NCBI GenBank assembly: GCA_964445985.1
Contig: CAYUMU010000083.1
Coordinates: 1-29,328, forward strand
Reading direction: 5' to 3'
DNA length: 29,328 bases
DNA from: an uncultured Pirellulales bacterium
GTDB lineage: Bacteria > Planctomycetota > Planctomycetia > Pirellulales > S012-138
In this document: positions 7,670 to 23,820 of the stretch, piece by piece
Position numbering within the stretch: position 1 is the first letter of the stretch
Layout: every line of letters begins with the position of its first letter
Translations under genes and position numbers: made by a program
Notes under the pieces: generated by a model
Seen by the model: the letters and a program-made list of their open reading frames with translations, nothing else
The model's database searches: none
What the model was told of the DNA's origin: nothing

Positions 7670-7780
7670 AAACACCCAATACGTTGACCGGCCTTTTCGC
7701 CGCCACCGGATTACGCTGGCGGGCGTGCAGCATTGGCTGCCGAAGGACTTGGAGGCAGGCAACGTACGGGAGGAGCTGCC

Positions 7781-8341: not shown

Positions 8342-9131
8342 GCCCAAGTTAGTCTGTTTGGATTTCTCGACCGAGCACGGTGAGAACGAGTCAGCGAACG
8401 CGTTTGGAACTGATGCAGCGCGTGGCGCCCATGGCGATCGCCCCGAACCTACCTCGACCGACATGAACCTGTTTTTTGACGACGATCTGCTGGCCGATTT
8501 GCCGCCTGAGTTGCAGGCGTTCGCCTCGCAATTGAGTGACGAAGCGGATGGGCTGGTCGCGGCTTTTCCGGCGCGGGAAGTCCATTCCGCGCGGGTTGCC
8601 GGTGGAACGAATGGAATGCCGGTTGTTCTTGAAACATGTCTTTCTGAATCATCGCCCGAGTTTACGGTGGGCGGTTCGGGTGGCGTGACTGGTGAGGCTG
8701 GGGTTGGGGTTGGCGGCTGGCGTTGGCCGGGGCGACTGGCTCAGGTGGCCGCCATGATTGCGGTCCTGGCGGGGTTGAGCGCTCTGCCGCTGCAACGCGA
8801 TCATCGGGTGGCGAAAGAAGACGAAGTGGATCGGGAAAGCCAAGCGGGACGGGAAAGCCAAGCGGGCCGGGAAAGCCAAGTGGGCCGGGAAAGCCAAGTG
8901 GGCCGGGAAAGCCAGGTGGCGAGCATGGCCGAGCCAGCGGTGCCGCGGCCAGGGCGAGAGGCCCCATCGATTCAGGAAGTTGAACCAGTGGGGGCCGAAG
9001 CGGCGGTGATTGAGCCGGCAGGGTTATCGCCCACGGGGATGCCAGCCACCACGTTTGTTGAGTTATCGGGCGCGGAACAGGAAGCGTTGTTGGATTTGCT
9101 GAGCGAAACCGCGTCGATGGGATCGATTTAG
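8331..9131 (+). CDS. Putative single-pass membrane anti-sigma factor, translationally coupled to the ECF sigma gene and carrying (RESQ[AV]G)x5 repeats.
   Basis: ATG at 8331 overlaps the sigma stop (ATGCCATTTAA). One predicted TM segment (WRWPGRLAQVAAMIAVLAGLSALPL) sits between an acidic N-domain and a C-terminal repeat-containing domain. Gene order is sigma then partner. I recognise no zinc-finger anti-sigma motif. Confidence 0.5.
   Translation: MPFKPKLVCLDFSTEHGENESANAFGTDAARGAHGDRPEPTSTDMNLFFDDDLLADLPPELQAFASQLSDEADGLVAAFPAREVHSARVAGGTNGMPVVLETCLSESSPEFTVGGSGGVTGEAGVGVGGWRWPGRLAQVAAMIAVLAGLSALPLQRDHRVAKEDEVDRESQAGRESQAGRESQVGRESQVGRESQVASMAEPAVPRPGREAPSIQEVEPVGAEAAVIEPAGLSPTGMPATTFVELSGAEQEALLDLLSETASMGSI
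8832..8921 (+). repeat. Five tandem 18-bp units cgggaaagccaagcgggc (coding RESQAG/RESQVG), in frame inside the anti-sigma candidate.
   Basis: Direct reading; units differ only at A/V codon positions. Confidence 0.9.
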
Positions 9132-9175: not shown

Positions 9176-10666
9176 ATGACGAAGATGCGTAAAGTAACGC
9201 TGCTGGTGATGTTCTCGACTGCCTGCCTGGGCTGGGCAGGCGGTGTTGGGCTGCTGGGTGTTGGGCCGCTGGGTGGGGCGTTGCCGGGAACCGGGTTGTG
9301 GGCAGCGGAACCGGATTTATCGGGGTTGGATGTATCGAAACCGGAATCTGACCTGCCAGAATTGGCTCAATCAGCGCCTGTTCAATCAGCGCCTGTTCAA
9401 TCCCGTTCCGTGCCCTCGGATGCGAACCAGCTCAATGCCGAGCAGTTGGCTCGGCAACTTTCGGCTGCCACGGTAACCATTCGCGTGACCGTTCCGCCCG
9501 ACGCGGGCGTGACGGTTTGTTCGGGGGTATCGCTGGGCGATGGGTTCCTGGTGACGTACAGCAACCATCCGGGCAATGCCGAGTATCGATTGACATTGCC
9601 CGATGGCGCTCAGGCCCAGGCCGATGCCCGGGTGATTGATGTCTATTCGGGGCTGACCTTGCTGCAGTTGGCGGCCCAGCCGGCGGTTGAGGGGGGGGCG
9701 GCGAACCGCGAGCCGATCCAAGTCAAGAGTTTGACGCCGTGGGCGGAGCTTCCGGCCGCGGGCGCCACCATTCTCACGGCGGCCGCCGCGGGGCTCGAGC
9801 AACCGGTCGTGTCGCGAGGTATTTTGGGCGGGGCCGAACGCACGTTGAGCGGGACCGGCTTGCCGCCGCTGCTGCAGTGCGATGTGCGGACCACCGACAC
9901 CTCGAGCGGCGCGGCCCTGATTGATGAACGGGGACGGCTGGTGGGTATCGTGGCCGTGACCGCTCGGGAAGGTCGCAGCGGCGGTTGGACCTACGCCGTG
10001 CCTGCCAGCCATGTGCAGCGATTGCTGCGAGCCTATGCCCAAAAGCAAGCCGGCGACAATCGGCTGGTCATCCTGCGCCGCCAGCGCCCGATGCTGGGGC
10101 TCTCCATGGTTGCGGGCGAAGAGTCGGGCAGCGTGATCGTGGAGCGGCTCGAAGCGCAAGGGCCGGCCAAGAAATCGGGCGTGCTCCAGTCGGATGAGAT
10201 TCTGGAGGTCGACGGCCTCAAGGTGCGCAGTGTGTATCAGGTGGTGGCCCTGGTGATGAAAAAGCAGCCGGGCGACCGCATGGAATTCATGATTCGCCGC
10301 GGCGAGCGCACCGAAAAGATCGCCGTTACGCTGGAAGGCGGATCGGTGGTGGAGCCTTCGGAAGTGGTTCGCAATGGCGGCGAGTTGGCGGAGCAAAAGA
10401 TCACCGTGCGTCGCAGTGGCGATCAATACAATATTGATCGGCCCGTGATTCGCCAGTTGAACCAACCGGCCGAGGGGGACGATCCGCTGCCCTCGGCTCC
10501 CGCGCCGGCCGCGAATGCGGCGCAGTTGGCGTTGATTCAAGAGCAAGTCAAGCGGTTCGCCGCGTATATCGAAAAGCTGCGGGTCGATGTGCGCGACCGC
10601 GATGAGGAGTTGATGCAACTCCGCGCCGAGCTCGAAATGCTGCGAAAACAGCTCGAATCGCGATAG
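9176..10666 (+). CDS. Secreted HtrA/DegS-like trypsin-fold serine protease homologue with one PDZ domain and a C-terminal coiled coil.
   Basis: Signal peptide. Protease-fold motifs GDGFLVTYSNHPGN (His), DTSSGAAL (Ser). PDZ segment GLSMVAGEESGSVIVERLEAQGPAKKSGVLQSDEILEVDGLKVRS...GDRMEFMIRRG. C-terminal heptad-like LALIQEQVKRFAAYIEKLRVDVRDRDEELMQLRAELEMLRKQLE. The expected Asp position aligns to Gly (YSGLTLLQL), so the triad may be non-canonical. Confidence 0.6.
   Translation: MTKMRKVTLLVMFSTACLGWAGGVGLLGVGPLGGALPGTGLWAAEPDLSGLDVSKPESDLPELAQSAPVQSAPVQSRSVPSDANQLNAEQLARQLSAATVTIRVTVPPDAGVTVCSGVSLGDGFLVTYSNHPGNAEYRLTLPDGAQAQADARVIDVYSGLTLLQLAAQPAVEGGAANREPIQVKSLTPWAELPAAGATILTAAAAGLEQPVVSRGILGGAERTLSGTGLPPLLQCDVRTTDTSSGAALIDERGRLVGIVAVTAREGRSGGWTYAVPASHVQRLLRAYAQKQAGDNRLVILRRQRPMLGLSMVAGEESGSVIVERLEAQGPAKKSGVLQSDEILEVDGLKVRSVYQVVALVMKKQPGDRMEFMIRRGERTEKIAVTLEGGSVVEPSEVVRNGGELAEQKITVRRSGDQYNIDRPVIRQLNQPAEGDDPLPSAPAPAANAAQLALIQEQVKRFAAYIEKLRVDVRDRDEELMQLRAELEMLRKQLESR
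9367..9399 (+). repeat. Tandem 15-bp repeat tcaatcagcgcctgt (codes SAPVQ SAPVQ) in the protease N-terminal linker.
   Basis: Direct reading. Confidence 0.85.
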
Positions 10667-10832: not shown

Positions 10833-12188
10833 CTAGCGGGTAAACCAGATGAGGAGGGCGACGCCGACCAGCAGCACCGTTCCCACCGCGGCGGCAATGA
10901 GCCATAGTTGCCGCTGGTTCATGTTGTCTTGCTGCTCCAGGGCCTCGGCGACCTGTTCCATGTTGGGGTAGCGATCGGCCGGTTCTTTGGCGACCATTTT
11001 TTGAAACACCTGGTCCAGCCAGGCGGGCACGTCGGGGCGAATTTGCGAGAGGGAGGGGATCGGGCCGGTGCGATGGGCCATGAGTTTGTCGATCATGCCC
11101 TTTCCGGGGTAGGGAATCTGAGCGGTGAGCAGATGGAACATCACGCAGCCCAGGCTGTAGATATCGGCGCGGCCGTCGATGGAGCTGGCGTCGGTGGCCT
11201 GTTCGGGTGCGAGATAGTCGACGGTGCCGATCATTTGTCCGGGGCGAGTCAGGTCTTCGCCGTCGGCCATCGCGCCGTCGTCGTCGAGCTTGGCGAGAAT
11301 GAGGTTGGAAATCTTGATCTGCCCTCGATGGTTGACGATCAGATTTTCGGGTTTGACATTGCGATGATAGATGCCCTGGCCATGCAGATAGGCCAAGCCT
11401 TCGGCCGCGGAGCGGATGAACTCCACGACCGCTTCCACCGGCAACGGGCCGTGCTGTTGAATGATTTGCGCGAGGTCGGCGCCGCCCACGTATTCCATGG
11501 AGAGGAAGTGGATGTCGCCGTCTTCGCCCAGTTCGAACCCGGCCACGAGGTTGCTGTGCGACAGTTTGCGGGTGACTTTGAACTCGCGTTGAAATCGCTT
11601 GAGGACTTCGGTCTTGCTGGCGGCGGCCGGCTTGAGCAATTTGAGGGCGACGATGGCCCCGCTGCCGATGTGCCGCGCCTTGTAGACGGGGCCGGTCGAC
11701 GAACTGGCTGAACGCTCGAGCAGCTGATACTTGCCCACGCGCTTGCCGACGTTGCGGTCGCCCGTGGCGGCAGCGGTTTGGTTGGGGGCAGCGGTTTGGT
11801 TGGGGGCAGGGGGCTGGTTGGGGGCGGGGGCGGCTTTGCCAGCCACGGGCGCGGCGGGCAGGTTGGCCGCGGTTTCGGCTTGGGCCGCTTTGAGCATGGC
11901 TTCGAACGAGGCCTGGGCCGAGCGGAGGGCCGCATCGTAGGCCGCCTTGCGTCGGGCATCGCTCAGCCGGCTGTGGGCGAGCTGCAGTTCTTGCTGCAAA
12001 CGCATGGCCGCTTCGGCCTGGGGGCCGGTGGTATGGGGCCGAACGAGCGCCAGTCTGGATTGGGCGGCGCCGCGAATCACGGCCGGATCGGCCTCGAATC
12101 TTTTCAGGCCAAGCAGCACGTAGAGGTTGGGCGGCTGGTGGACGGGGTCGATGCCCAACCACTGCATGTACGGATCGAAAGGCTCCAT
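10833..12188 (-). CDS. Tail-anchored protein: degenerate J-like domain + protein-kinase-like domain that is a predicted pseudokinase (HRN and SNL in place of HRD and DFG) + C-terminal TM helix.
   Basis: Kinase fold: VALKLLKP (beta3 Lys present), YHRNVKPENLIV, IKISNLILAKL, TVDYLAPEQ. Codons checked on the DNA: cat cgc aat and tcc aac ctc. Gly loop degenerate (RSASSSTG). N-terminus PNLYVLLGL...RPHTTG...KAAYDAAL resembles a J domain lacking HPD. C-terminus LWLIAAAVGTVLLVGVALLIWFTR. ATG 12188 chosen; the ORF is open to 12614 without coding-like content. Confidence 0.7.
   Translation of the reverse strand: MEPFDPYMQWLGIDPVHQPPNLYVLLGLKRFEADPAVIRGAAQSRLALVRPHTTGPQAEAAMRLQQELQLAHSRLSDARRKAAYDAALRSAQASFEAMLKAAQAETAANLPAAPVAGKAAPAPNQPPAPNQTAAPNQTAAATGDRNVGKRVGKYQLLERSASSSTGPVYKARHIGSGAIVALKLLKPAAASKTEVLKRFQREFKVTRKLSHSNLVAGFELGEDGDIHFLSMEYVGGADLAQIIQQHGPLPVEAVVEFIRSAAEGLAYLHGQGIYHRNVKPENLIVNHRGQIKISNLILAKLDDDGAMADGEDLTRPGQMIGTVDYLAPEQATDASSIDGRADIYSLGCVMFHLLTAQIPYPGKGMIDKLMAHRTGPIPSLSQIRPDVPAWLDQVFQKMVAKEPADRYPNMEQVAEALEQQDNMNQRQLWLIAAAVGTVLLVGVALLIWFTR
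11770..11826 (-). repeat. About three tandem 18-bp units (coding APNQTA on the minus strand) in the linker of the pseudokinase gene.
   Basis: gcagcggtttggttgggg repeated; translation gives APNQPPAPNQTAAPNQTAA. Confidence 0.8.
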
Positions 12189-12686
12189 GGCGATACCCCC
12201 AGCCAGATGCATTCCAACAGGTCGGCGAATGCCTTTTATGCGAGGGGCAGAGCGATCGACGGTTGCGGAGGCGCGCCGCTGCAAGTTCGAACATGGTCCA
12301 CCCCCCGGCGGCGTGCCTTGATCGTAACAAGCCTGGCCCTGGTTTGCAGCAGGGAGTTTCGTGAAAGAGAGGAAGTCGTGGGATAGTTGGCGGATCGCGG
12401 GCTGCCCCCTTGCCGTGTGGCGTGTTCTGCATGCTTGCGCCAGTGGGCGTAAGCATGGCGCCCCGTGTGTAGCCGCGACCAGGCATTTCAGCGAATGCCG
12501 GCTGGCCGGCGCTTTACCTTGGCTGGCAACTGCTGTCACAATGGCAGCCAGGCCGGTCAAGCCTGGCGTGACGTGTCGGGAGAAGTCCCCACGGCAACGA
12601 ACGCGAACCGCCAACCGTTAAGCGGGAATCCGTGCCGGCCTCGCCCAACCCAAGACTCCCACCTGCTCCGCCTAGGAGAGCTGTGC

Positions 12687-15002
12687 ATGCGCGCGACCTT
12701 CGCTCTGTTTTTAGCTGCCGGGCTGCTGGCCAACATTCCTGGCCCATTGCCGCGGTGCTCGACACTCAATGCGGCGCCAATGGACGCCATTCCAGATGAA
12801 GGGGCCGTGGAAGCGCCGCCGGTGGAGGCAGCGAGCGTGCCGGGAGCCGGGCTGGACTTGGCCAGCGGGGTTTCTAGCCAGCCGCTTTCCGCGCAGCAAA
12901 TTGCGGCCCGATTTATGAAGTCGGTGGTGGTGATTACTTACACGGGCCGCGATGGGCAGCGGCAGGGGCTCGGCTCGGGTTTCATTGTTTCGCCCGATGG
13001 GCTGATCGCCACCAACCTGCACGTGATCGGCGAAGCGCGACCTATTCAGGTGCAGTTGGCCGATGGCAAACAGTACCAGGCCACGGAGGTGCTGGCTTCG
13101 GACGCGCAGCTTGATCTGGCCGTGGTGCGAATCGAGGCCAAGAACCTGGCGGCGCTGGAGCTGGGAGATTCTGACAAGCTGGCCAAAGGGCAAGACGTGG
13201 TCGCGCTCGGCAACCCTCAAGGCCTACGGCACAGCGTGGTGGCCGGGGTGGTTTCGGGCCGGCGGGAGATTGAAGGCAAGCCCATGATTCAGCTGGCCAT
13301 TCCCATCGAGCCGGGCAACAGCGGCGGGCCGCTGCTCGATTTGCATGGCCGCGTGCATGGGCTGCTGACGATGAAATCGCTGGTGACCGCCAACCTGGGT
13401 TTCGCGGTGGAGGTGAACGCGCTCAAGTCGCTGCTTGCCAAGCCCAACCCGGTTCCTATTGACCGTTGGCTCACCATTGGCACGCTCGACCCGGCCAAGT
13501 GGAGCGAAGCTAGCGGCGGTCGTTGGCGGCAACGGGCTGGTCGCATTCAGGTGGATGGCCTTGGCGATGGTTTCGGCGGGCGAAGCTTTTGTCTTTCCAA
13601 AGACGCGCCACCCGAGCGGCCGTTCGAACTGGCGGTGGAAGTCAAGCTGGATGACGAAGCGGGGGCGGCCGGCCTGGTGTTTGCCGCCGAAGACGAACTG
13701 CACTACGGCTTTTATCCTAGCGGCGGCAAGTTGCGGCTCACCCGCTTTGAAGGGCCCGACGTGCTGAGCTGGACGATTCTTTATGACCAGCGCAGCCCTC
13801 ACTACTTGCCCGGCGAGTGGAACTCGCTCAAGGTTCGCCTGGAGGATGAGCGGATGCTGTGTTACGTGAACGATCACCTGGTGGTGGAGACTCGTGATAA
13901 TCGTCTCAAAGGGCAGCATGTGGGCGTGGCAAAGTTCCGCGAAACCGCCGCCATGTTTCGCCATTTTCAGATAGGCAAGCAGGTCACCTCGCAAGGACCA
14001 TCGAAGGAGCTTGTGGAGCGAGTCAACGCCGCGGTGGCTACGATTCCCGCGCGGGGCGCGGTGGATCACCTGGTTCCCCAACTGAGCCCTATCGAGTCGC
14101 AAACCGCGGTGGCTTTACGGAATCGGGCTTTGGAGCTCGAACGGCAGGCCGCGCAGTTGCGCAAATTGGCGACCGACGTGCATCGGCAAAGCGTGTGCGA
14201 TGAACTGCACGCGACGCTCAGCCGCCCTGATGACCAGGTCGATTTGGCCAAGGCATCGCTGCTGGTTGCCCGGCTCGACAACGACGAAGTGGATGTGGCG
14301 GCCTATCTGCGCGATCTGGATCGGCGGGCTGAAGAAATTCGTCAGGTTCTGCCCAAAGATGCCGACGTGGCCGCGCGGCTGGCCGCGCTGAACAAGTATC
14401 TGTTTCAACAGAACGGTTTCCACGGGAGCCGCAATGATTACTATCACCGCTCGAATAGCTATCTGAACGAAGTTCTCGACGATCGCGAAGGGCTGCCGAT
14501 CACGCTGGCCGTGCTCTACATGGAGCTGGCGCAGCGGTTGGAGGTTCCGATTCAAGGCGTGGGGCTGCCGGGGCATTTTATTGTGAAGCACGCGCCCTCA
14601 AAGGGTAAGCCGCAACTGATTGATGTTTATGAAGGGGGCAAGCTGCTGACCGAGGGCGAAGCCAAGGCTCGCGTGAACGAGTACACCGGCTTGAACTGGA
14701 AAGACAGCTATCTGGATGGGGTTTCCAAGCAAGAGATCGTGGTGCGGATGATCCACAACCTGATGAACCTGGCCCGCGAGAAGCAGGACGCCGAGCAGAT
14801 GCTGGGCTATGTGGATGCCCTGATTGCGGTGCGGTCCAACGCAGAGGAAGAACGCTGGATGCGGGCCGTGCTGCGCTATCAAACGCAGCGTTTGAGCGGC
14901 GCGGCCGAAGACACGGCCTGGCTGCTGGAGCATCCGCTGCACGGGGTGAACGAAGAGCAAGTGCGGCGGCTACAGCGGCTGATTGAGGAGAGCCGGGAAT
15001 AG
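12687..15002 (+). CDS. Secreted tri-domain protein: canonical S1/HtrA-type serine protease + DUF1080 (LamG-like / 3-keto-disaccharide-hydrolase-like) + C-terminal transglutaminase-like/TPR (SirB1-type) domain.
   Basis: Signal peptide MRATFALFLAAGLLANIPG after GGAGAG RBS. Triad motifs ATNLHVI, DLAVVRI, GNSGGPL. DUF1080-like WNSLKVRLEDERMLCYVNDHLV. C-terminal ...NDYYHRSNSYLNEVLDDREGLPITLAVLYMELAQRLEVPIQGVGLPGHFIVKH followed by TPR-like helices. Confidence 0.75.
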   Translation: MRATFALFLAAGLLANIPGPLPRCSTLNAAPMDAIPDEGAVEAPPVEAASVPGAGLDLASGVSSQPLSAQQIAARFMKSVVVITYTGRDGQRQGLGSGFIVSPDGLIATNLHVIGEARPIQVQLADGKQYQATEVLASDAQLDLAVVRIEAKNLAALELGDSDKLAKGQDVVALGNPQGLRHSVVAGVVSGRREIEGKPMIQLAIPIEPGNSGGPLLDLHGRVHGLLTMKSLVTANLGFAVEVNALKSLLAKPNPVPIDRWLTIGTLDPAKWSEASGGRWRQRAGRIQVDGLGDGFGGRSFCLSKDAPPERPFELAVEVKLDDEAGAAGLVFAAEDELHYGFYPSGGKLRLTRFEGPDVLSWTILYDQRSPHYLPGEWNSLKVRLEDERMLCYVNDHLVVETRDNRLKGQHVGVAKFRETAAMFRHFQIGKQVTSQGPSKELVERVNAAVATIPARGAVDHLVPQLSPIESQTAVALRNRALELERQAAQLRKLATDVHRQSVCDELHATLSRPDDQVDLAKASLLVARLDNDEVDVAAYLRDLDRRAEEIRQVLPKDADVAARLAALNKYLFQQNGFHGSRNDYYHRSNSYLNEVLDDREGLPITLAVLYMELAQRLEVPIQGVGLPGHFIVKHAPSKGKPQLIDVYEGGKLLTEGEAKARVNEYTGLNWKDSYLDGVSKQEIVVRMIHNLMNLAREKQDAEQMLGYVDALIAVRSNAEEERWMRAVLRYQTQRLSGAAEDTAWLLEHPLHGVNEEQVRRLQRLIEESRE

Positions 15003-15099
15003 CCGCCCCGTCGCTGTGGGAAAATTCTACTCGCGCAGTTAGAAGTCAGCCATTTGGGCACATGCCGCCGGATTCCGTATTGGAGAGTGTCTGACGGGA

Positions 15100-17166
15100 T
15101 TGAATCAGGGCGGCAAAGCCTTCGATCATTGGAAGGATTTTGTTGGGCAGATGCCCGCTGGGCCTTGGCGAGGACAGGCCCGCGTCGCGATCATCGACTA
15201 TGCTCTAGAAGCCAACTTTGATTTCGCGGCCGCGACCGAGCAAGCGATTGAAGGAGCCGCCACCCTTGCGAAAGCGATTGAAGCCGAGGCTCAAGCGTCC
15301 TGGAACGAGGCGGCCCTGGACATCCACTTTCGCATGGGACTCATTTCGCTGGCGGATAGTCGTTACGACGCCGCCATCCAGGCATTTAACCAAATGGAGA
15401 AGAGCCTTGCTGAATCACCCAAGACAGCCACCACAATCGCGTCGGATCGAGGAACACTGATTGCGGGCCTCGAACGACTCAAGGAGGTTTCCGCGGGGAG
15501 AATCCCGCTATTGCCCGAGGAAGTTGCCCGAGAAGCAGACGCCCAAACCGCGACCGTGCTTTCCTACAGCGTCCTTAACCTGGCGATGCAGCGGTATGAG
15601 AATGCTCAGAGGATTGCGTCCCGAATCGGCGTGAAACTCGGCTCCGGTGCCCGTCGGTCGTTCGCGGCTTTTGTTGAAGCTCGGGCACACATTGGGCTGC
15701 TGACAAGCGGTCAGGCTACATCGATGGCCTCAGATAAGACAAGGGAATCGGAACGGCAAACACAGGTGCTGCGGTTACGGTCGTTGCTTCAGCAAAGTCT
15801 CCGCGACTTTCCGACCGGCTCTTGGCACGACGAAACGTTGAGGGCGTTTGCTCGATTCATCGAATATCGGGCGGAGGAGCGATTTGGCGCTCAGGCAGAA
15901 TCCAAGGACCAGAATCGATCCCCGCAATCTCAGGCTAAGGCCTTGCTGGGAGCGCGAGGCGAGGCTTTGCCCTACTGGCTGCAAATTGTTGAGCGCCATC
16001 CCAAGAGTCCCCGATCAGAAGAGGCCATGTATCGTGCTGGACTTCTGCTGTGCGAGGCGCTTCAGGTGGAGTACGACAATGCTTCAAATCGCCGAGCCGA
16101 AGAGGCCGGTGCCCTCTTCAACCGCTTGATGGACGAGTACCCAAATAGCGTCCACGCAGGCGACATCTTCGTTCATCAGATCGACATTGCGTTGGAGTGG
16201 ACCTTCGAACTGGAAAAAGCCGCGAAACTGGCTCGTCGGGGTGTTCAATGGGCCAGTTCTCAAGATGTCAAAGTCATTGCGAAAGCCGACGGGGGCTTGG
16301 ATCCGGCGGCCGACGCCCTGGCGGCTGATGTCATCAAAGCCTCCAATGCGCGTTTGCCTGCCTGGGCACAGTCAGCCAACCCCGAAGCGAATAGCTTGCT
16401 CGATGACATGTATAATCTTTACCTGAGGGCGGGAATCCTGGCCTACCTCGAGGAAGACTATGAGGAGGCCGCACGCCACTTCGAATCTGCGGGACCGGCC
16501 AGGCCGGTTGAAGGAATGCAAGCCAATTTCGACCTGCAAAAGGTGGGGCTGTTCATCCTCTCCAACTCCATCAAGCGTAAGCAAGTCGCCTGGTACCCGG
16601 AGGCCATAGCCCACGCGAAATCCGACCAACTGAAACTCGCGATCAAACTGGCAGATACCTACCTGCACGCACAGCGTCCTGAAAAGGCACAGGCAATCTA
16701 CGAGCGTCTACTTAGTTCATCCTCTCCTACCGGGCGCCCCGACAAAGCCGTTGAAAGTTATTGTAGTATGCAATTGGCCCTGGCATGTTCTAATCAGGAT
16801 CTCGACTACGACAAGTCGAAAGCCATCTACGATCGCTTTTATCAAAAAGACTATGCGGTGTTCCCCTGGGCGGCGGATGCCATCATGCGATTATCCGTGC
16901 TGGAGTTTAACACGACACAGGATCCCAGGCGATCCATTAGTCACTATCAACACATCTTAAAACTTTATCCGAATCATCCAGATGCCGAGCGTGCGCTCTA
17001 TTTCCTCGTGCTCGATGCTGTAGCGATTGGTGATGAGCGAATGGCTGAATCGGCGAGTAAACTGTTCGAGGAAAGATATCCGCGCAGCGGTTGGAGAAAT
17101 CATGTTCACGAGGTGTTGAGGAACAATGTGCCAAACACTGAAGGGCGAGAAAAGGAGCAAGATTGA
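15100..17166 (+). CDS. Tetratricopeptide-repeat (TPR) protein, no evident signal peptide. Start uncertain: TTG 15100 or ATG 15151.
   Basis: 688-aa ORF with many Ala/Leu-rich helical repeats with W/Y at TPR positions. Its stop overlaps the next gene's start (TGATG). GC content drops through this gene. Confidence 0.6.
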   Translation: MNQGGKAFDHWKDFVGQMPAGPWRGQARVAIIDYALEANFDFAAATEQAIEGAATLAKAIEAEAQASWNEAALDIHFRMGLISLADSRYDAAIQAFNQMEKSLAESPKTATTIASDRGTLIAGLERLKEVSAGRIPLLPEEVAREADAQTATVLSYSVLNLAMQRYENAQRIASRIGVKLGSGARRSFAAFVEARAHIGLLTSGQATSMASDKTRESERQTQVLRLRSLLQQSLRDFPTGSWHDETLRAFARFIEYRAEERFGAQAESKDQNRSPQSQAKALLGARGEALPYWLQIVERHPKSPRSEEAMYRAGLLLCEALQVEYDNASNRRAEEAGALFNRLMDEYPNSVHAGDIFVHQIDIALEWTFELEKAAKLARRGVQWASSQDVKVIAKADGGLDPAADALAADVIKASNARLPAWAQSANPEANSLLDDMYNLYLRAGILAYLEEDYEEAARHFESAGPARPVEGMQANFDLQKVGLFILSNSIKRKQVAWYPEAIAHAKSDQLKLAIKLADTYLHAQRPEKAQAIYERLLSSSSPTGRPDKAVESYCSMQLALACSNQDLDYDKSKAIYDRFYQKDYAVFPWAADAIMRLSVLEFNTTQDPRRSISHYQHILKLYPNHPDAERALYFLVLDAVAIGDERMAESASKLFEERYPRSGWRNHVHEVLRNNVPNTEGREKEQD

Positions 17167-18647
17167 TGACTACTGTGTTTCAACGCTGGATTCTGCTGGC
17201 CCTTGCAACCCAAGTGATGACGTCGACCTGTGCCGATTGCACCGCCGCGGAGAGCGTCGACGAGCTCGGCGGAGCCAGAGGTCAGTACGCTTCTTTGGAT
17301 GCTGCCCCAGATCACCTGACGACCTACAAAGACGGTAAGACGCTACGGGTCACGGGCGGTTCTGCCGCTCCATTCTACACTTTTGATCAGGGCAAAGTCC
17401 GACTTACAGGCAAAGAGGGTTCCACGGCCACATTTTCAGGTAGATCTACGGGTTGGGGATGTATGTATACGGTCTACGGAGTGTATGAGGGAGGCTTTGG
17501 AGAATTTGCTCCTGAGCGCCTTATTGCTCGTTGGGAGAATCGTTTCGAGGATGCTGATGAACCCCGAATTGTGCTTATTGTTAACGAGCCTGGTCCTAGC
17601 GACGACATTGTGCTTCTGGGAGAAAACGGAGGTGAACTCCGGCTTAGCATCTTTGGGTTTCCGGGGGCCGTAGATGTGAGTTTGTCGGTAGCACCTCAGG
17701 GAAAGCTGGCCAGTTTTCCGGAATCCGTTATGGTAAGCTATGGTTCGGCAACAAGCGTCGTACTAAATGGACAAGCGGGTGGTCAAGTGACAATCACGGC
17801 AACCGCCACGATCAATAACGAAGAGGTCTCTGCGTCCATCAATGCAAGAATAGTCGGGTATCGTCCGTCAATTAATCCTGAAGACGACTTCGCTCAGCGA
17901 AGCCACCAGAAACTCGGTGTGGGTGAAACGGGCACCTTAGGGGTTGATCCTGCGCCAGGAACCGATATCGGTGAACTCACACTGACATGGACCATTGCCG
18001 CCGGCAATGGCCTATCACTTGCAAACGTCCATGAAACCAATGGCACGGCTGATTTCACGGCGGGGAATGTCGCAGGCGAGGCCACCATTGTTTTGGCTGA
18101 CTCACTCGGCAATGAATTCAGTACGACGGTACATGTAATCGAGCCAACTGCAGTGGTCCAGGAAATGTTTCGGCACGGAAAACAGTCGGGTGCGGGTATA
18201 GCTCACCAGATGAGGGCATACATGGACCTTTTTTCCTATCTGCGGCCAGCAGATGTCAGTTTTTGGAAAATCCAGGTGATTGAAGATGAATGCCCTGCCA
18301 TTGGAACAGGCAGCCAATTGAATGCAACCAACAACCCTGACGATGACCATGCTCGGTGGAACCACTGGGTTGATGTGGGCAAGGGGGATTCTTCAAAAGG
18401 CTGCTTAGTTTTGGGCCCCGGGATAGTTTCTAGTGACCCAATTAAGTATTACGATCAAGCTGGACTCTTGATAGACACTAACTACGTTGAGCCCGGAGCA
18501 TTGATGTGGAATATCCCTTGGCTTTACAAGATCGGCAATATTCAAGACAGGCAGTTCGCAACGGCAACTCAAATTTTCACATTCCTTGGCGATAGGGTCA
18601 GGGTGTTTAAGCAAGGGGTGCAAGTCGAAAAAGGCCCCCCCTGGTAG
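17166..18647 (+). CDS. Secreted protein with a bacterial Ig-like (Big_2-type) domain and a C-terminal domain of unknown function.
   Basis: Signal peptide MTTVFQRWILLALATQVMTSTCA. Big_2-like segment GVDPAPGTDIGELTLTWTIAAGNGLSLANVHETNGTADFTAGNVAGEATIVLADSLGNEFSTTVHVIE. Translationally coupled to the TPR gene. GC about 50 %. Confidence 0.6.
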   Translation: MTTVFQRWILLALATQVMTSTCADCTAAESVDELGGARGQYASLDAAPDHLTTYKDGKTLRVTGGSAAPFYTFDQGKVRLTGKEGSTATFSGRSTGWGCMYTVYGVYEGGFGEFAPERLIARWENRFEDADEPRIVLIVNEPGPSDDIVLLGENGGELRLSIFGFPGAVDVSLSVAPQGKLASFPESVMVSYGSATSVVLNGQAGGQVTITATATINNEEVSASINARIVGYRPSINPEDDFAQRSHQKLGVGETGTLGVDPAPGTDIGELTLTWTIAAGNGLSLANVHETNGTADFTAGNVAGEATIVLADSLGNEFSTTVHVIEPTAVVQEMFRHGKQSGAGIAHQMRAYMDLFSYLRPADVSFWKIQVIEDECPAIGTGSQLNATNNPDDDHARWNHWVDVGKGDSSKGCLVLGPGIVSSDPIKYYDQAGLLIDTNYVEPGALMWNIPWLYKIGNIQDRQFATATQIFTFLGDRVRVFKQGVQVEKGPPW

Positions 18648-18961
18648 AGTTGCTCCGGTTGTTGATCAAGGGCGACAACATCGAGACCGCGGCCGAAACT
18701 CGTTAAATCGTTGAGGTGCCAAAGCGACGTAATCGTGTATTTCGGTAGAATTGTAGCGGCTGCGCCTAGGAATTCACAACGACAAATCGCGAAGCCCCTA
18801 GAGTATGGAACCTAAGCTGTAGTCCTGCCGACCACTTAAGCGGAAACTACAGTTAGTTGCACAAAGTCAAAACCGGATGGCCCTTCCTTCGGAAGAGGTC
18901 GGCAAGAGGTCCGGCGATCCGCCCCTGTTGGGTTGGGCAACTTTTAATGAGGCTCTGGAAG

Positions 18962-21928
18962 ATGGCAACCTGTAGAGTAATGCTGCGGCTGTTTATGGTC
19001 GTGATTGGCAGTTCAAATTGTGTCGCTCGTTGCGAGGAGGCATTAAGTGACCATTCCTTGGTTTCCAGTCAGCTTGAGAAGATTGATGAATTAATTGAAG
19101 CGGGGGACGCGAATGCTGTCATCGGTGCTATTGCTGAACTGGAGGCAAGGCTTGACTTGCCAGAGAAACAGTATTTAGAACGTGCTCGTCTGGTGAAAAT
19201 GTATTTGCAGAAAATAATGTGGTCGCCCGTCGCAAAGCTGGACACCGTCAATATTGCGGCCGCGAAACTTGCTCTTCACGCATTGCGAACGGCTACTTTC
19301 AATAGTTTGGCAGATGGAGATCTCTTGGAGCAACACCTGGAAATCGTGCTTGTTCACCTGCCACGGACTAGTTTGAATCGTCACGAATTGGCCATGGCCT
19401 CATTGCAAGTATGGAATGGATTGGAAGTCGCAACGGTGAATGCAGATACGGAATTAAAGTCGTTTGTAGTGCTGGACGTGCCAGTCCCTGGACCGGAGTT
19501 CAAAGGTCGGTTTTTTTGGGGAATGAAACCGGACGCAATTAAGGATTCGGAATTTAGAGACCGCTACGTGGCATATCTGCAAAACCAAGCTCAGTACAGT
19601 GTATTGCTGGCGAAGTATCGTCATCTCACAATACTTCGCGACCGCTACATCAAGCGTCTGAAGGAGGTACTCAAGGTAGCTTATCCAGATGATGAAGCCG
19701 GTCACGCGAAGGGTCTCGCGACGATCGAAGAGCATATTTCTAATCCGGAGGTGCGGAGCGACTTACTGAGAATCGTTCGCAGGCTCGACGCGGAAGTTCC
19801 TGCAGATCGCATAAAGGTGCAAGCCGACATAAAGTGGATTCCCGCTAGAGATCCTACGACGGGGCCAATCAACACGCTGACTCTCTCCGTGCCCGCGCGT
19901 AAGGATGCGGTGATCGTACGCGGGCGATTTCGCTCTCAGTTCTTACCGGTTATTGAGGCGATCGCTAATGAGTTCCCCTCTGGCGATAAACTGCAAATTG
20001 CGTATGATGACCATTCTTCGCTCGGTTGGTTCTGCGATCCAACGGCCCCTTTCGACGTGCTGGTCCACGAAGGCAGGCTCACTGCGCACGACCAACGCTC
20101 GCTAAGCCGTAGTTTCCCACCGGATTCGCGGCAGCCTGAGGTGGTACTCGTTGGACAGCGTCGAGTGTATGTGGTTGTCCACAAAAGTAATCCGATATCC
20201 TCGCTGTCGTTGGTTGGAATGGGCAAGATCCTGGGAGCAGCAAAGGAGGGTTCTAACTGGTCAGAATTCGGTGGCGGAAGAATTCCAATTCGTTGTTATG
20301 GACCTCTCGATGGGACCTGGCCTCGTTCTTTTGTGAGGCAAAGGTGCATGAACTCTTGGCGAGACACCGAACAGCCCGGCATCCGCCAGCAGCAAATCGA
20401 AAATTATCGCGATGATATTGTCCCGTGCGCCGACGGAAAGGAAGTGATTTCGAAAGTTCGGGCAGATCGCAACGCAATGGGCTTCTTCGCCTGGGACGAA
20501 CAACTTAACGAGGAGGACTTCGCCTCAGTCAAGATCCTCTCAATCGCAGATGAGGCTGCAGGTCCGCCGGTAAGGCCGTCGATTGTTCCAGAGATCGAAC
20601 AATTTTATCCGCTGGCGGAATCCGTCACCCTGTACGCTCACCCCTCCGCGCCGCTCCAGGCCCATCTGTTTTGCGAATTCGCAGCGGGGCCAGAAGCCGC
20701 CAAGATTGCGAGACAAATGGGTTTGTGGACGCCGATCGATGTGGAACAACGACTGAGTGCCCAGCGCCTAGAAGATGCCAAGGCTGGTCTCGGCGAATCA
20801 ATCAGCGTTCTTGGCTTGGTCAGTAGCGAGAAGCTTGCTCGCGACCTGGCGCTGGAATACGTCGAAGCGAGCGAGGTTGTACAGCTAAACTTTCAAAGAT
20901 CCTCGTCGGAAGTTTCGGCTATCGAGCGTTATTTATCGGGGTCGGCGGATCTGCTGATTTTGGAACGAGAGCCACCAAGTTCATTGCTGGAGTTCTTCGA
21001 TGAGCATAAGCGGTGTGCTTTAGGTCAGACAGCTCTGGGCGTCATCGTACATCCCGAACTTCCTGCCGATTCCTTTTCTCTGGATGACCTTCAGATTATC
21101 TGCCGTCGACAGATCAAAAAATGGCCCGGAGGCTCGCCGATCACGGGATATGGACTTCCCTTCAGCGAACCCGTTATGCAAATCTATCAGCAACACTTGG
21201 CACCGCCTCCAGGTGCCGGAACGGGTTCGCTCCGACTCACGGCCCATCCCAGCACGATCCAAGTGATGGCCGCGGTGGCGCGCGATCCCGCAGGCATTGG
21301 ATTTGTGGACCTTTACGATTTGCCCCAGGATCACGCCTCGGTAAGGCTGCTTGGGATCGTTCTCGACAAGGACACAGTAGTGCAGCCGGCACCGGGATTT
21401 GTACCGGAGAACTATCCCCTCGTGAACCACTACGTGTTATACGAATCCCCGACAGCGGGAGAAGCCGCCAAGAAAATGGCGGCCTGGCTGGCCGAGCATC
21501 CCTGCGAAGAGGTGCTTAAGCAGCATCACCTGATTGCACCCTTACGACCAGAAGCCACCACTACCGGGCCACTACCAGAAGCATTGGCCGTTGCGGCATC
21601 GAACCCGAACCCCGAAAACCTTGTTGAGCAAAAGACAACCGTGCGTCGCATGTTCGAACTCTCAGAAGGCTCCGCAGCAACTTCCGGTGCTGGTTCGCAT
21701 GGTCAAGATGTATGGACTCCATCGGATGCGTCGGCAGAGGGCACCGGGAATTCATCCACAGACGCGACACGATCAAGCAATGGGGATTCAAGCGTGCTTG
21801 TGGGTTTTCAAATGCCGCCGAATGAGCTCTTGTGGGCGATTGGTGGATCGTTTGCTTTATCGGTGGTTTTCATTTTCCTGGGCAGTCGCAAGTCCAAAAT
21901 CCGCGCACTGAGAGATCGCCGTTCTTAG
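18962..21928 (+). CDS. Roughly 990-aa C-terminally membrane-anchored protein with two PstS/SphX-like (PBP_like_2, phosphate-binding-protein fold) domains. Start uncertain among 18857, 18947 and 18962.
   Basis: Signal-like N-terminus MATCRVMLRLFMVVIGSSNCVA. Domain 1: VYVVVHKSNPISSLSLVGMGKILGAAKEGSNWSEFGGGRIPIRCYGPLDGTW. Domain 2: LGVIVHPELPADSFSLDDLQIICRRQIKKWPGGSPITGYGLPFSEP...VDLYD. C-terminal Ser/Thr-rich segment then TM helix LWAIGGSFALSVVFIFLGSRKSKIR. AT-rich third-codon positions, unlike the rest of the window. Confidence 0.6.
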   Translation: MATCRVMLRLFMVVIGSSNCVARCEEALSDHSLVSSQLEKIDELIEAGDANAVIGAIAELEARLDLPEKQYLERARLVKMYLQKIMWSPVAKLDTVNIAAAKLALHALRTATFNSLADGDLLEQHLEIVLVHLPRTSLNRHELAMASLQVWNGLEVATVNADTELKSFVVLDVPVPGPEFKGRFFWGMKPDAIKDSEFRDRYVAYLQNQAQYSVLLAKYRHLTILRDRYIKRLKEVLKVAYPDDEAGHAKGLATIEEHISNPEVRSDLLRIVRRLDAEVPADRIKVQADIKWIPARDPTTGPINTLTLSVPARKDAVIVRGRFRSQFLPVIEAIANEFPSGDKLQIAYDDHSSLGWFCDPTAPFDVLVHEGRLTAHDQRSLSRSFPPDSRQPEVVLVGQRRVYVVVHKSNPISSLSLVGMGKILGAAKEGSNWSEFGGGRIPIRCYGPLDGTWPRSFVRQRCMNSWRDTEQPGIRQQQIENYRDDIVPCADGKEVISKVRADRNAMGFFAWDEQLNEEDFASVKILSIADEAAGPPVRPSIVPEIEQFYPLAESVTLYAHPSAPLQAHLFCEFAAGPEAAKIARQMGLWTPIDVEQRLSAQRLEDAKAGLGESISVLGLVSSEKLARDLALEYVEASEVVQLNFQRSSSEVSAIERYLSGSADLLILEREPPSSLLEFFDEHKRCALGQTALGVIVHPELPADSFSLDDLQIICRRQIKKWPGGSPITGYGLPFSEPVMQIYQQHLAPPPGAGTGSLRLTAHPSTIQVMAAVARDPAGIGFVDLYDLPQDHASVRLLGIVLDKDTVVQPAPGFVPENYPLVNHYVLYESPTAGEAAKKMAAWLAEHPCEEVLKQHHLIAPLRPEATTTGPLPEALAVAASNPNPENLVEQKTTVRRMFELSEGSAATSGAGSHGQDVWTPSDASAEGTGNSSTDATRSSNGDSSVLVGFQMPPNELLWAIGGSFALSVVFIFLGSRKSKIRALRDRRS

Positions 21929-22020
21929 GCACTTGGCCTGTTGTTGCCGCGGACTGTCACTTGATGCACCATATAGTAAACCGGCGAATGGTGGCCCGGG
22001 GTACACTTGCGGCGGATTCT

Positions 22021-22049
22021 GAAAAAAGAGGCCATCAACAGCGCGTTGA
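22021..22049 (-). terminator. Weak intrinsic-terminator candidate for the HEAT-repeat gene (short hairpin tcaac...gttga followed by T6 on the minus strand).
   Basis: On the minus strand: stop at 22054-22056, hairpin at 22049-22035, T-run at 22028-22021. Stem only about 5 bp. Confidence 0.25.
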
Positions 22050-22053
22050 GAGA

Positions 22054-22731
22054 TTACTTCCAGCCAAACAAGCGTTCGGCGATTGAGCGTTCTTTTTGCG
22101 GCAGGTCGCTGCCGCGGGCCACTTCGGCCCAAACCTTGGCGTCGCGCGCGTAGTATTTGCCCGTGGCGATTTCGAGGGAATCGATGGTGGAATCGACGAT
22201 GGCCGGGTTGGGGTCGTCGAGGGCGATGGCCAGGGCGGTTACGGCCTCGGGGGTTTTGAGGTTGCCTAGCCCTCGGATGGCGGCCATGCGCACGGCCAGG
22301 TCTTTTTCGCTTTCGACCACGCGGGCCAAAGCGCGGGTGTTATCGGTCCCGCCCTGGGCCGAGAGGCCCTTCACGGCCACGAGGCGAACGTATTCGTCTT
22401 CGTCGCTGATCGCTGCCTGCAGCACCTTGGCCCCGGTGGGCGAAGGCAGCACTTCCAGGGCTTGCACGATGTGGGTGCGGAGGATGGGGTCTTTGGTTTC
22501 GCGAATTTCGGTGGCCAGTTGTTGGGCGAGCTTCTCTTTTTCTTCGGCCGGTTTGCGGCGGCCCGACGCAGCCAGTTTCTGGTAGCGTTCGATCTTTTCG
22601 TGGGGCAGCTCAAAGTCGGCCACGTCTTGCTTCTCCCAGAACAAAACGCCGGGCGGCACGCCAGCCGATCGACAACCGGCGGCTGCGAGTAGCAGGCCCA
22701 ACATCAGGTGGTGGAGAATAGTACGTGGCAT
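22054..22731 (-). CDS. Lipoprotein with PBS-lyase/HEAT-like repeats.
   Basis: Lipobox MPRTILHHLMLGLLLAAAGC. Repeats IVQALEVL..., YVRLVAVKGLSAQGG, DLAVRMAAIRGLGNLKTPEAVTALAIALDDPNPAIVDSTIDSLE. ATG 22731 chosen for the signal peptide; the ORF is open to 22953. Confidence 0.7.
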   Translation of the reverse strand: MPRTILHHLMLGLLLAAAGCRSAGVPPGVLFWEKQDVADFELPHEKIERYQKLAASGRRKPAEEKEKLAQQLATEIRETKDPILRTHIVQALEVLPSPTGAKVLQAAISDEDEYVRLVAVKGLSAQGGTDNTRALARVVESEKDLAVRMAAIRGLGNLKTPEAVTALAIALDDPNPAIVDSTIDSLEIATGKYYARDAKVWAEVARGSDLPQKERSIAERLFGWK

Positions 22732-23203
22732 ACGCTCGAGTAGGTCTCGTACAAAGGCGAATAAGAACGGAGCGATTCGACTGAGGACCGGGAAAGGCGG
22801 CGGAGAGTAGCAAAGGACTTGGATCGGAACCAGACGGCTTTTGGCCGCGCGAACCAACTTTTGTTCAATTCTCCAGTGGCGCCAGATCGATGCCCGCCAT
22901 TGAGGTGTGCTAGCGGCGAAGTCGCCGCCAGGGGGAAGTCGCCCCCCGCACATTCCAAGCTTGGGCAGTCTCAGCCGAATACCCTATCGGGACACGGGGC
23001 GCGCGAACTTCAGGAAGGATTGGCAAAGCTTGACGATTCTTCCTTCTTGGGGAGCAGCCAACGGTTGTGCTATCATGCAATCGGTGCGCGGAAGCTTGCC
23101 GGATCGGCGAGCCCGCCCATCCACGTCGATCGTTCTGAGATACCGGCCGGACACGGCGAGCCACGTTCCGACGCCCCCCCTAACTTTGCCTGGGAGTTTT
23201 CGT

Positions 23204-23719
23204 ATGCCCGACCCGATAGAACATCTCGAAAACCGTCCCTGGCTGGAGCGGATCCTCGGCCATATTCCCGGCTTCTCTGGCTACCTGCAGCGCGAGCGCC
23301 GCCGCGAGGCCGACGCCCTGCAACGCAACTTTCTGGCAGACCGCTTGCAGCGTTCGAAGCGGGCCATCGACACGGTGACTCGGGAACTGACAGCCCGGGG
23401 GATGATCGACCTGCTGGGCGATTTCGACCGGCTCCGGGGCCAACTCGATAAACTCATGGCGCAAATCCGCGGGGCCATGCACGGTTACAGCGGGTTTTTT
23501 GACCTGGTGCAGATCGATGAGAAGGCGCTCGACCGCGTGTACGAGCACGACGCCGACATGCTCGACCGCGTGGAAGAGCTGGCCGAAATGATCGAAGACC
23601 TGCCGCGGGAACGCGACCCGGCGGAGATTGCCGGCCGCGTGCAAAAGTGCCGCGAGCAGGCCGACGAGGTCGAACGGGTGTTTGCCATGAGGGCAGAAAT
23701 CCTCCAAGGCCTAGACTAA
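23204..23719 (+). CDS. 171-aa coiled-coil-rich, acidic hypothetical protein immediately upstream of the SPFH gene.
   Basis: ATG 23204 with GGGAG 8 nt upstream. Heptad-like LQRNFLADRLQRSKRAIDTVTRELTARG and C-terminal EELAEMIEDLPRERDPAEIAGRVQKCREQADEVERV. No recognisable catalytic motif. The ORF is open to 22907, but that extension overlaps the divergent promoter region. Confidence 0.5.
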   Translation: MPDPIEHLENRPWLERILGHIPGFSGYLQRERRREADALQRNFLADRLQRSKRAIDTVTRELTARGMIDLLGDFDRLRGQLDKLMAQIRGAMHGYSGFFDLVQIDEKALDRVYEHDADMLDRVEELAEMIEDLPRERDPAEIAGRVQKCREQADEVERVFAMRAEILQGLD

Positions 23720-23757
23720 CGTCAGCCCCAGTCACCAGCTACCAACCGAATGAGAAA

Positions 23758-23820
23758 AGTGCGGAGTGCGGAATTCGGAGTGCGGAGTTGAAGACGGGAA
23801 TCGTTTGTTGGTGCTGGGCC
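23758..23820. repeat. Second copy of the CGGAGTG-heptad element (cggagtg cggaatt cggagtg cggagtt gaagacggg...gctgggcc), 114 nt upstream of the SPFH gene start.
   Basis: Aligned by eye with 48-126. The downstream spacer also shares ttgcaa and cccgac(g/a)cg with 145-162. Confidence 0.55.

Follow-up and report, generated by a model that had tools for sequence, protein, structure and literature searches.

The 29,328-bp contig CAYUMU010000083.1 of an uncultured Pirellulales bacterium (NCBI assembly GCA_964445985.1), analysed here as one complete window, carries at positions 15100-21928 a block of three genes. They encode a tetratricopeptide-repeat (TPR) protein, a secreted all-beta protein and a giant protein with two tandem lobes of the periplasmic-binding protein (PBP) type that resemble the phosphate-binding protein PstS. 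Tentatively, and with somewhat less than even confidence, we read this block as one copy of a conserved, uncharacterised Planctomycetota envelope cassette that serves sensing or binding rather than phosphate import. A function other than uptake is favoured because the ligand loops of PstS are replaced, no pstCAB genes accompany the lobes, the double PBP is tethered by a transmembrane (TM) helix, and relatives are coupled to J-like domains. The same four features lend indirect support to an earlier note on this DNA, which had proposed that the lobes are used for sensing or adhesion and not for uptake.

An exhaustive phmmer search for relatives of the giant protein returned 406 cluster representatives, with E<=1e-30 for 107. 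A word-index search with the giant protein or with a 20-sequence alignment returned the query alone, a misleading outcome for a protein rich in low-complexity sequence that has hundreds of relatives at 30-47% identity. Most representatives are 570-790 residues long and match only residues 300-870, and are thus stand-alone double-PBP proteins. When the middle protein was used as the query, a genome collection yielded one locus among 185,579 species genomes, in a Phycisphaerae metagenome-assembled genome (L001). A metagenome scan yielded four loci. The order TPR protein, variable protein 2, variable protein 3 and double PBP is found in eight loci, namely the window, L001, L004, L005/6, L013, L016, L019 and L020. 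The two ends of this cassette are conserved, with 30-39% identity for the TPR protein and 29-45% for the double PBP. The protein at position 2 is related across six loci, and position 3 is occupied by one family, hereafter the N-domain, in four loci, by ankyrin repeats in L013 and by unrelated proteins in L016, L019 and L020. In the relatives, all four cassette proteins carry signal peptides.

From this comparison, the ancestral cassette would have encoded four exported proteins. The first would be a TPR scaffold of about 930 residues and the second a variable immunoglobulin-like (Ig-like) protein whose gene is translationally coupled to that of the scaffold. The third would be a variable helical or repeat protein, of the N-domain family here and of ankyrin or other types elsewhere, and the fourth a pair of tandem Venus-flytrap lobes resembling S-type PstS. 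Helical-repeat partners (HEAT, and ankyrin in L013) seem to recur beside the double PBP: a HEAT-repeat protein is encoded directly 5' of the double-PBP gene in L017 (L017:3-2072), and HEAT_2 is fused to the double PBP in P0120. The two neighbours in L008, of 641 and 512 residues, were considered as permuted TPR and Ig-like genes, and this was ruled out by BLASTP. In L001, the cassette is followed on the minus strand (L001:5847-12112) by genes for two HD-type response regulators (HD_5, HDOD/HD), a CBS protein, a PAS histidine kinase and an SBP_bac_11 protein; this signalling-rich neighbourhood is not conserved in the other loci. No relevant paper on PBP_like_2 or PstS-like proteins of Planctomycetes turned up in a literature search.

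In the window, the giant protein consists of genes 3 and 4 of the cassette fused, because its two halves match separate genes in L001 and L006. Residues 187-272 match the third-gene proteins of these loci (313 residues in L001, 167 in L006), and residues 287-860 match their fourth-gene, double-PBP proteins (BLASTP). Three relatives of about 300 residues (P0124, P0130 and P0155) match only window residues 23-283 in phmmer and are stand-alone N-domains, and P0037 is a second, independent fusion of N-domain and double PBP. Where separate genes have a stop codon, a spacer and a signal peptide at the start of the downstream product, the giant protein has the linker that joins its halves. An assembly artefact was ruled out for the fused open reading frame (ORF) and for the right junction, since an independent Logan contig is identical to the window over 18290-23791. 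The fusion predicts an interaction between the two proteins that have genes of their own elsewhere.

The real start of the giant gene is the ATG at 18962, which gives 988 residues, and not the TTG at 18857 of the listed ORF (1023 residues). Its AlphaFold2 (AF2) model has a mean predicted local distance difference test score (pLDDT) of 80.6, and its parts are laid out in Table 1. The earlier note had described a protein of about 1000 residues with a C-terminal TM helix, which is correct; the N-terminus that it left unassigned is the fused neighbour gene. No relative of the N-domain was found in Pfam or PDB; its matches to designed PPR proteins were rejected as sums of weak helical-repeat matches in which no single stretch is significant. 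At the other end, no C-terminal sorting-signal model (PEP-CTERM and similar) matched in NCBIfam, and we therefore take the C-terminus for a simple TM anchor. This anchor is kept in the closest clade (23 of 150 representatives), and stalk-like low-complexity linkers also occur in P0007-P0010 and P0018. In this clade, a single TM helix, preceded by a disordered stalk and followed by a short basic tail, would tether the double PBP to the cytoplasmic membrane.

Table 1. Features of the block and of the candidate partner kinase (positions of the window; aa, amino-acid residues; SD, Shine-Dalgarno).
Feature	Position	Strand	Basis
Candidate partner Ser/Thr kinase, N-terminal degenerate J-domain, C-terminal TM anchor	10833..12188	-	Pkinase 141 bits
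Left junction, ancestral TPR gene cut off	15003..15054	.	homology boundary, TAG, end of preceding gene
TPR protein, 688 aa from TTG 15100 (ATG at 15151)	15100..17166	+	TPR_6 and YfiO (Pfam)
SD-like aaaaggag, then TGATG stop/start overlap	17150..17168	+	read from sequence
Secreted all-beta protein of predicted Ig-like domains, 493 aa, variable position 2 gene	17166..18647	+	
314-nt intergenic gap at GC minimum	18648..18961	.	
Hydrophobic N-terminus, probable signal peptide, aa 1-28, MATCRVMLRLFMVVIGSSNCVARC	18962..19045	+	stand-alone homologues with signal peptides
All-alpha N-domain, aa 29-275; separate position 3 gene in relatives	19046..19786	+	BLASTP, pLDDT 70-90
Fusion linker, aa 276-305	19787..19876	+	pLDDT <50; aligned to mature N-termini of stand-alone double-PBP proteins
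PBP lobe 1, aa 306-608, type II periplasmic-binding fold, strongly diverged	19877..20785	+	pLDDT >90
PBP lobe 2, aa 609-864, PBP_like_2	20786..21553	+	Pfam 31.2 bits vs cut-off 27; pLDDT >90
Disordered stalk, Ser/Thr/Gly/Asn-rich, aa 865-953	21554..21820	+	pLDDT 32-39
C-terminal TM helix aa 954-975, 13-aa basic tail aa 976-988, stop	21821..21928	+	hydropathy scan, AF2 helix

The assignment of the two lobes to the PstS type, made in the earlier note, holds in profile searches and in the predicted fold. PBP_like_2 (PF12849) exceeds its cut-off in lobe 2, at residues 647-879 of the 1023-residue ORF. Lobe 1 gives only a weak SBP_bac_11 match in the window, and both lobes match in the relatives, where PBP_like_2 scores 59-135 bits over two stretches. 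The internal repeat of the two lobes is picked up by BLAST. Compared with PDB sequences, the family profile found 1twy (1e-17) and 4jwo (2e-15), and the best Foldseek matches were PstS structures, with the tandem-lobe proteins EvgS and transferrin also matched. At the DNA level, the copies of a 39-nt direct repeat (20667-20705 and 21435-21473, 74% identity) are spaced exactly 768 nt (256 codons) from each other, in corresponding C-terminal helices of lobes 1 and 2; the repeat may be a trace of internal duplication or due to chance.

Phosphate binding in S-type PstS proteins relies on Thr/Ser loops and on a triad of Asp, Arg and Thr (PMC13614923). When 1twy is aligned with the family profile, its segments GSTS, GVGSTAG and TREASSGT stand opposite d-l-k-g, ksesree and Glkasdpv, positions that are non-conserved or acidic. 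Placed on the AF2 secondary structure, lobe 1 has the loops GRFRS, DHSS and YGPLDGT, and lobe 2 has GLVS, SSS and LPFSEPV, where PstS has GSTS, GSxG and R...SGT. In lobe 2, TREASSGT aligns to G-L-x-x-x-D-P-A, with the Asp present in 36/66 and the Pro in 46/66 relatives, and Asp-Pro stands family-wide in place of the anion-binding Ser-Gly. By these alignments, the conserved anion-binding residues of PstS are missing from both lobes. The genomic context of a phosphate transporter is missing as well: no pstCAB or other ATP-binding cassette (ABC) permease or ATPase gene was found beside the homologues in L001, L005/6, L008, L013, L015, L016, L017, L019 and L020, and the one transporter next to the homologue in L018 is an unrelated FecCD iron system, encoded on the opposite strand. 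Pfam and NCBIfam scans detected no permease or ABC ATPase gene in the 29-kb window, in agreement with the earlier note. The lobes would be a plain example of a binding protein that left transport for a different role once its ligand site was lost.

The first gene of the block encodes a TPR protein, as the earlier note had it, with TPR_6 (50.6 bits) and YfiO (32.5 bits) both above their Pfam cut-offs. The NCBIfam models scored below theirs (TIGR03302, 41.5 vs 81.4; TIGR02795, 41.8 vs 90.1; PRK10803, 33.3 vs 383 bits), so that the protein falls outside BamD (YfiO) and CpoB (YbgF), its matches above cut-off being confined to the generic Pfam repeats TPR_6 and YfiO. Full-length homologues have 925-960 residues and N-terminal signal peptides; no signal peptide was detected on the window protein, whose residue 1 aligns at about residue 240-270 of these homologues. 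The 5' part of the gene is missing, because in-frame homology, to residues 224-260 of the full-length TPR proteins of L013 and L016, continues upstream of the start as far as 15055 and gives way to an in-frame TAG at 15040-15042, 38 nt beyond the end of the preceding gene at 15002. By this comparison, the gene appears to have lost its first 240 codons or so, signal peptide included. The break sits where GC content starts to fall, and the truncated gene shows that a rearrangement took place at the left edge of the block. The left junction (about 15.0 kb) may itself be a chimeric join, the identity with the independent assembly covering 18290-23791 only.

The second gene follows without a gap. 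The Shine-Dalgarno-like aaaaggag (17150-17157) stands nine bases upstream, and the stop codon TGA (17164-17166) overlaps the start codon ATG (17166-17168), the TGATG that the earlier note had pointed out. The same junction between the TPR gene and gene 2 shows a one- or four-base overlap in L001, L004 and L005, which suggests that the TPR and Ig-like genes are translationally coupled. The earlier note had taken the encoded 493-residue protein for a Big_2 protein, an assignment that we do not retain at the sequence level. Pfam gave no family for it at E<=1, and Big_2 (PF02368) had no match at E<=5 in the window protein or its 4 homologues; the best Pfam matches among the five family members were Cohesin (0.0026), Invasin_D3 (0.31) and Big_1 (3.2), each in one member. 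The AF2 model is all-beta, and its fold matches are the S-layer proteins SbsB and Sap and the adhesins invasin, intimin and FdeC. The middle protein is therefore Ig-like by predicted fold only. In the 314-nt gap between this gene and the giant gene, no promoter-like site was found on the plus strand.

The block also stands out by composition. In 1-kb windows, GC content drops from values around 0.61-0.65 to a low of 0.50 between 18.5 and 20 kb and regains 0.61 by 22 kb, and the lowest-GC 6.8-kb window begins at 15251. The composition is thus not uniform, and the valley described in the earlier note is real; the 50% and 63% quoted there are extremes, the means being 0.539 for 15100-21928 and 0.611 for the rest of the window. 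GC content at third codon positions (GC3) is 0.604 in the TPR gene, 0.512 in the middle gene and 0.552 in the giant gene, compared with 0.727 +/- 0.045 (minimum 0.646) in 15 flanking genes, which corresponds to z-scores of -2.8, -4.8 and -3.9. Since GC1 and GC2 are unchanged relative to the flanks, the shift is synonymous. The earlier note was right that third positions are richer in A/T; the codons that it named as drivers hardly differ between block and flank (AAA, 0.45 vs 0.39; GAA, 0.54 vs 0.50; ATT, 0.42 vs 0.46). The GC-normalised dinucleotide distance delta* is 69.9 for the block, and at most 53.2 for segments of equal size from the rest of the window. Composition is therefore atypical of the host, as expected of a genomic island. 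Marks of mobility are absent: no tRNA gene, integrase, transposase or flanking repeat was found in the window. The horizontal acquisition suggested in the earlier note is thus neither shown nor excluded.

A GC3 valley of the same shape occurs in all eight cassettes, with genes 2 and 3 lowest and the TPR and double-PBP genes intermediate (Table 2). The background GC3 of the hosts spans about 0.7 to 0.9, and the level of the valley tracks the host while its shape is constant. Because the same valley is present in all eight cassettes, it is a property of the cassette and not proof of a recent transfer here. The constant shape at a host-tracking level fits a variable centre that is weakly adapted or often exchanged, and not one recent import. 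Surface-polysaccharide loci have a similarly variable, often exchanged centre. A gene cluster can thus keep a local GC valley from host to host, and such a valley is, taken alone, weak evidence for recent transfer. Mobile elements were observed near two other double-PBP genes. In L018 (12661-17818 of a 363-kb contig), the homologue P0010 is followed by two copies of an IS66-family insertion sequence (TnpB_IS66 and DDE transposase) and an rve_3 fragment, and the double-PBP gene has a GC3 of 0.73 vs 0.85-0.89 for its neighbours. In L010, a gene for an IS200-like Y1 transposase (408-1103) is found some 1 kb 5' of another double-PBP homologue fragment.

Table 2. GC3 of cassette genes and flanking genes in the seven other loci.
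Locus	TPR	Gene 2	Gene 3	Double PBP	Flanks
L001	0.64	0.48	0.54	0.60	0.57-0.71
L004	0.72	0.64	0.62	outside the data	outside the data
L005/6	0.84	0.68	0.62	0.80	0.89
L013	0.74	0.61	0.57	0.73	0.83
L016	0.64	0.51	0.54	0.55	outside the data
L019	0.65	0.56	0.58	0.58	0.66-0.73
L020	0.75/0.68	0.69/0.64	0.62	0.69	0.74-0.76

A possible link to the cytoplasm comes from J-like domains encoded with the double PBP in relatives. The gene that follows the double-PBP gene in L008, L013 and L016 encodes a protein whose N-terminus reads FDPYHVWLGIPP...YRLLG...FE.D..VI. There is a 4-nt overlap between this gene and the double-PBP stop in L013, and in L008 the N-terminal domain of the product is followed by a TM helix and a helical part in the periplasm. 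In other relatives the two are fused across the TM helix, as 2xPBP-TM-J-like in P0046 and P0043 and as J-like-TM-2xPBP in P0100. The J-like domain of P0100 is above the Pfam DnaJ cut-off, and the others are degenerate and lack the HPD motif. P0046 is encoded in L020, where the full cassette precedes it.

In the window, the J-like motif occurs only once, as the N-terminus of a Ser/Thr kinase (MEPFDPYMQWLGI), which is 43% identical over 91 residues (E 8e-20) to the product of the gene after the double PBP in L013 and matches the DnaJ model at E 0.0013, below the cut-off. The kinase ORF, listed as 10833-12614 on the minus strand, overextends by about 140 codons at its 5' end, the real start being at about 12188. 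The protein consists of the J-like N-terminus, an Ala/Pro-rich linker, the kinase domain and a TM helix formed by its last 25 residues, and is thus tail-anchored. A binding-protein fold and a membrane-anchored Ser/Thr kinase are encoded within 7 kb of each other, their putative link being the J-like domain that the kinase shares with the neighbours of the relatives. On the basis of this shared domain, we infer that the kinase may be a partner of the double PBP.

In the mechanism that we propose, the lobes would be occupied, in the periplasm, by a ligand other than phosphate or by a protein partner, and their occupancy would be passed through the single TM helix to cytoplasmic proteins with a degenerate J-domain; the candidate receiver here would be the tail-anchored kinase. 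Extended to the family, this would be an undescribed trans-envelope system of Planctomycetota, in which a PstS-derived, non-phosphate tandem-flytrap receptor with exported TPR, Ig-like and helical-repeat partners signals to J-domain proteins without HPD, tail-anchored kinases among them, a proposal that we consider unlikely in this full form. Planctomycetota have unusually large sets of Ser/Thr kinases and uncharacterised envelope proteins, and few sensory inputs are known. If the reading of the block as a sensing or binding cassette is right, it would supply a defined and recurrent set of parts for signalling from periplasm to kinase, with the TPR protein as scaffold, Ig-like and helical proteins as variable partners, a double flytrap on a tether and a J-like domain in the cytoplasm. 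If that reading is wrong, what is left is an uncharacterised envelope gene cluster of moderate interest.

Several observations weigh against a cassette that senses or binds and signals inwards. In L008, L017 and L018, the double-PBP gene is accompanied by neither a TPR nor an Ig-like gene. No J-like motif was found next to the double-PBP gene in the window, L001, L015, L017, L018 and L019. The kinase lies 2.8 kb from the cassette, on the opposite strand and with another gene between, and genomes of this kind may hold many J-like domains. Only 13 residues of the giant protein form its cytoplasmic tail. A TPR protein without a signal peptide may miss its partners, so that the local copy is maybe partly disabled. 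Finally, no annotated homologue gives a function, and the literature search found nothing on the double-PBP family.

The main alternative, which we regard as possible if doubtful, is a purely structural or adhesive envelope assembly, for instance a periplasmic or surface lattice, whose modules are protein- or surface-binding scaffolds that take no part in sensing or signalling. The S-layer and adhesin folds that best match the Ig-like protein suit such an assembly, and the variable, GC-poor middle genes are as expected of exposed, fast-evolving proteins. Degenerate ligand loops in the lobes, so short a tail and the many cassettes without a J-like partner point the same way. Fusions of the double PBP with J-like domains across the TM helix, in both orders, are nevertheless hard to explain for an external scaffold, and both flytrap lobes are conserved and confidently folded. 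It is much less probable, in our view, that two PstS domains form a membrane-tethered phosphate scavenger that hands phosphate to a PstCAB encoded elsewhere: this explanation, to which we give very little credence, has in its favour the PBP_like_2 match above the Pfam cut-off and the PstS proteins as best sequence and fold matches, including the PstS-like 4jwo of Planctomyces limnophilus, but it has to contend with anion loops that are replaced in both lobes, with Asp-Pro family-wide where Ser-Gly binds the anion, and with neighbourhoods that, in the window and in the relatives, are devoid of pstCAB.

The block could also be a horizontally acquired island that is decaying here, in which case the low-GC DNA is foreign, the TPR truncation and the fusion are scars of rearrangement, and the genes no longer work as a unit. 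The GC3 z-scores and the outlying dinucleotide signature would agree with this, as would the cut in the TPR gene exactly at the onset of the GC fall, the rarity of the cassette (the single match among the species genomes) and the L018 gene, which is far below its host in GC3 and lies beside IS66 copies. We nonetheless hold such an island to be improbable, since the window has none of the mobility marks, three ORFs are intact over 6.8 kb, and the closest relatives are just 45-47% identical; the valley, equal in shape in all eight cassettes and following host GC in level, argues against a recent arrival from a single donor.

The gene content of the window has a planctomycetal look; around the block lie genes for a DUF1559/N-methyl protein, a sulfatase, an extracytoplasmic function (ECF) sigma factor and the Ser/Thr kinase (Pfam). 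The region 5' of the cassette is rich in envelope-stress and signalling genes (sigma factor, protease, kinase, HtrA-like fusion). The ECF sigma factor gene (7733-8341) overlaps a 287-residue ORF without a Pfam match (8268-9131), possibly an anti-sigma factor, both on the plus strand, and a trypsin-PDZ protease gene (9176-10666, plus strand) comes next. Directly 5' of the truncated TPR gene, the plus-strand gene 12465-15002 encodes a fusion of an HtrA-like trypsin domain, DUF1080 (3-keto-disaccharide hydrolase-like), Transglut_core2 and TPR_9 (SirB1-like). On the other side, a HEAT-repeat gene on the minus strand (22054-22953) converges on the giant gene. No Rfam family was detected in the window, including the 314-nt gap, promoter- and terminator-like sites are no commoner in it than in shuffles, and PADLOC returned no match, so that a defence system is not indicated.

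Several known systems share parts with the cassette. The window TPR protein has the TPR_6/YfiO type of repeat in common with the periplasmic proteins BamD/YfiO and CpoB/YbgF, but reaches only about 41 bits where the NCBIfam cut-offs are 81-90. Ig-like beta-sandwich domains, predicted for the 493-residue protein, are shared with the invasin/intimin proteins, from which it differs by having neither an outer-membrane beta-barrel anchor nor a Big_1 or Big_2 match to a hidden Markov model. The lobes have the type II periplasmic-binding fold of S-type PstS proteins (Vibrio cholerae 1twy, Clostridium perfringens PBP-1 4q8r, Synechocystis Sll0540 9l8j, SphX and P. limnophilus 4jwo). They differ in being joined in tandem in a giant protein with a helical-domain fusion and a C-terminal TM tether, in the replacement of the Thr/Ser, Arg and SGT positions, and in having no pstCAB neighbours. 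Transferrin and lactoferrin also carry two PBP-type lobes from tandem duplication in one chain, as the giant protein does; transferrin 6wb6 aligns with it over 711 columns, with low TM-scores (0.16-0.23) and no sequence similarity, and, unlike the giant protein, transferrin is eukaryotic, soluble and binds iron and carbonate.

The nearest mechanistic analogues would be the tandem flytraps BvgS/EvgS and the GlnH-GlnX-PknG system, and we assign the giant protein to neither. As modelled, it has the two tandem periplasmic PBP-type lobes followed by one TM helix that characterise BvgS and EvgS, and the periplasmic domain of EvgS (9ilw) aligns with it over 623 columns in Foldseek. The flytraps of BvgS sense and do not transport. 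In contrast to BvgS and EvgS, the giant protein has no PAS, HisKA, HATPase or receiver domain and ends 13 residues after the TM helix, and its lobes are of the PstS type rather than the amino-acid-binding type, so that its output would need a separate protein. For such an output, GlnH-GlnX-PknG of Corynebacterium and Mycobacterium offers a precedent, in which an extracytoplasmic binding protein signals via a membrane protein to a Ser/Thr kinase (mentioned in PMC11032199). The window kinase is encoded nearby, is membrane-anchored and has a domain in common with partners of the double PBP in relatives. It differs from PknG in having no TPR domain, the TPR protein being separate and exported in the cassette, and in its link to the binding protein, which would consist in domain sharing alone; no GlnX-like four-helix transducer was found. 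In effect, the proposed system would divide a receptor kinase between two membrane proteins that each span the membrane once, one of them a PstS-fold protein in a non-transport role.

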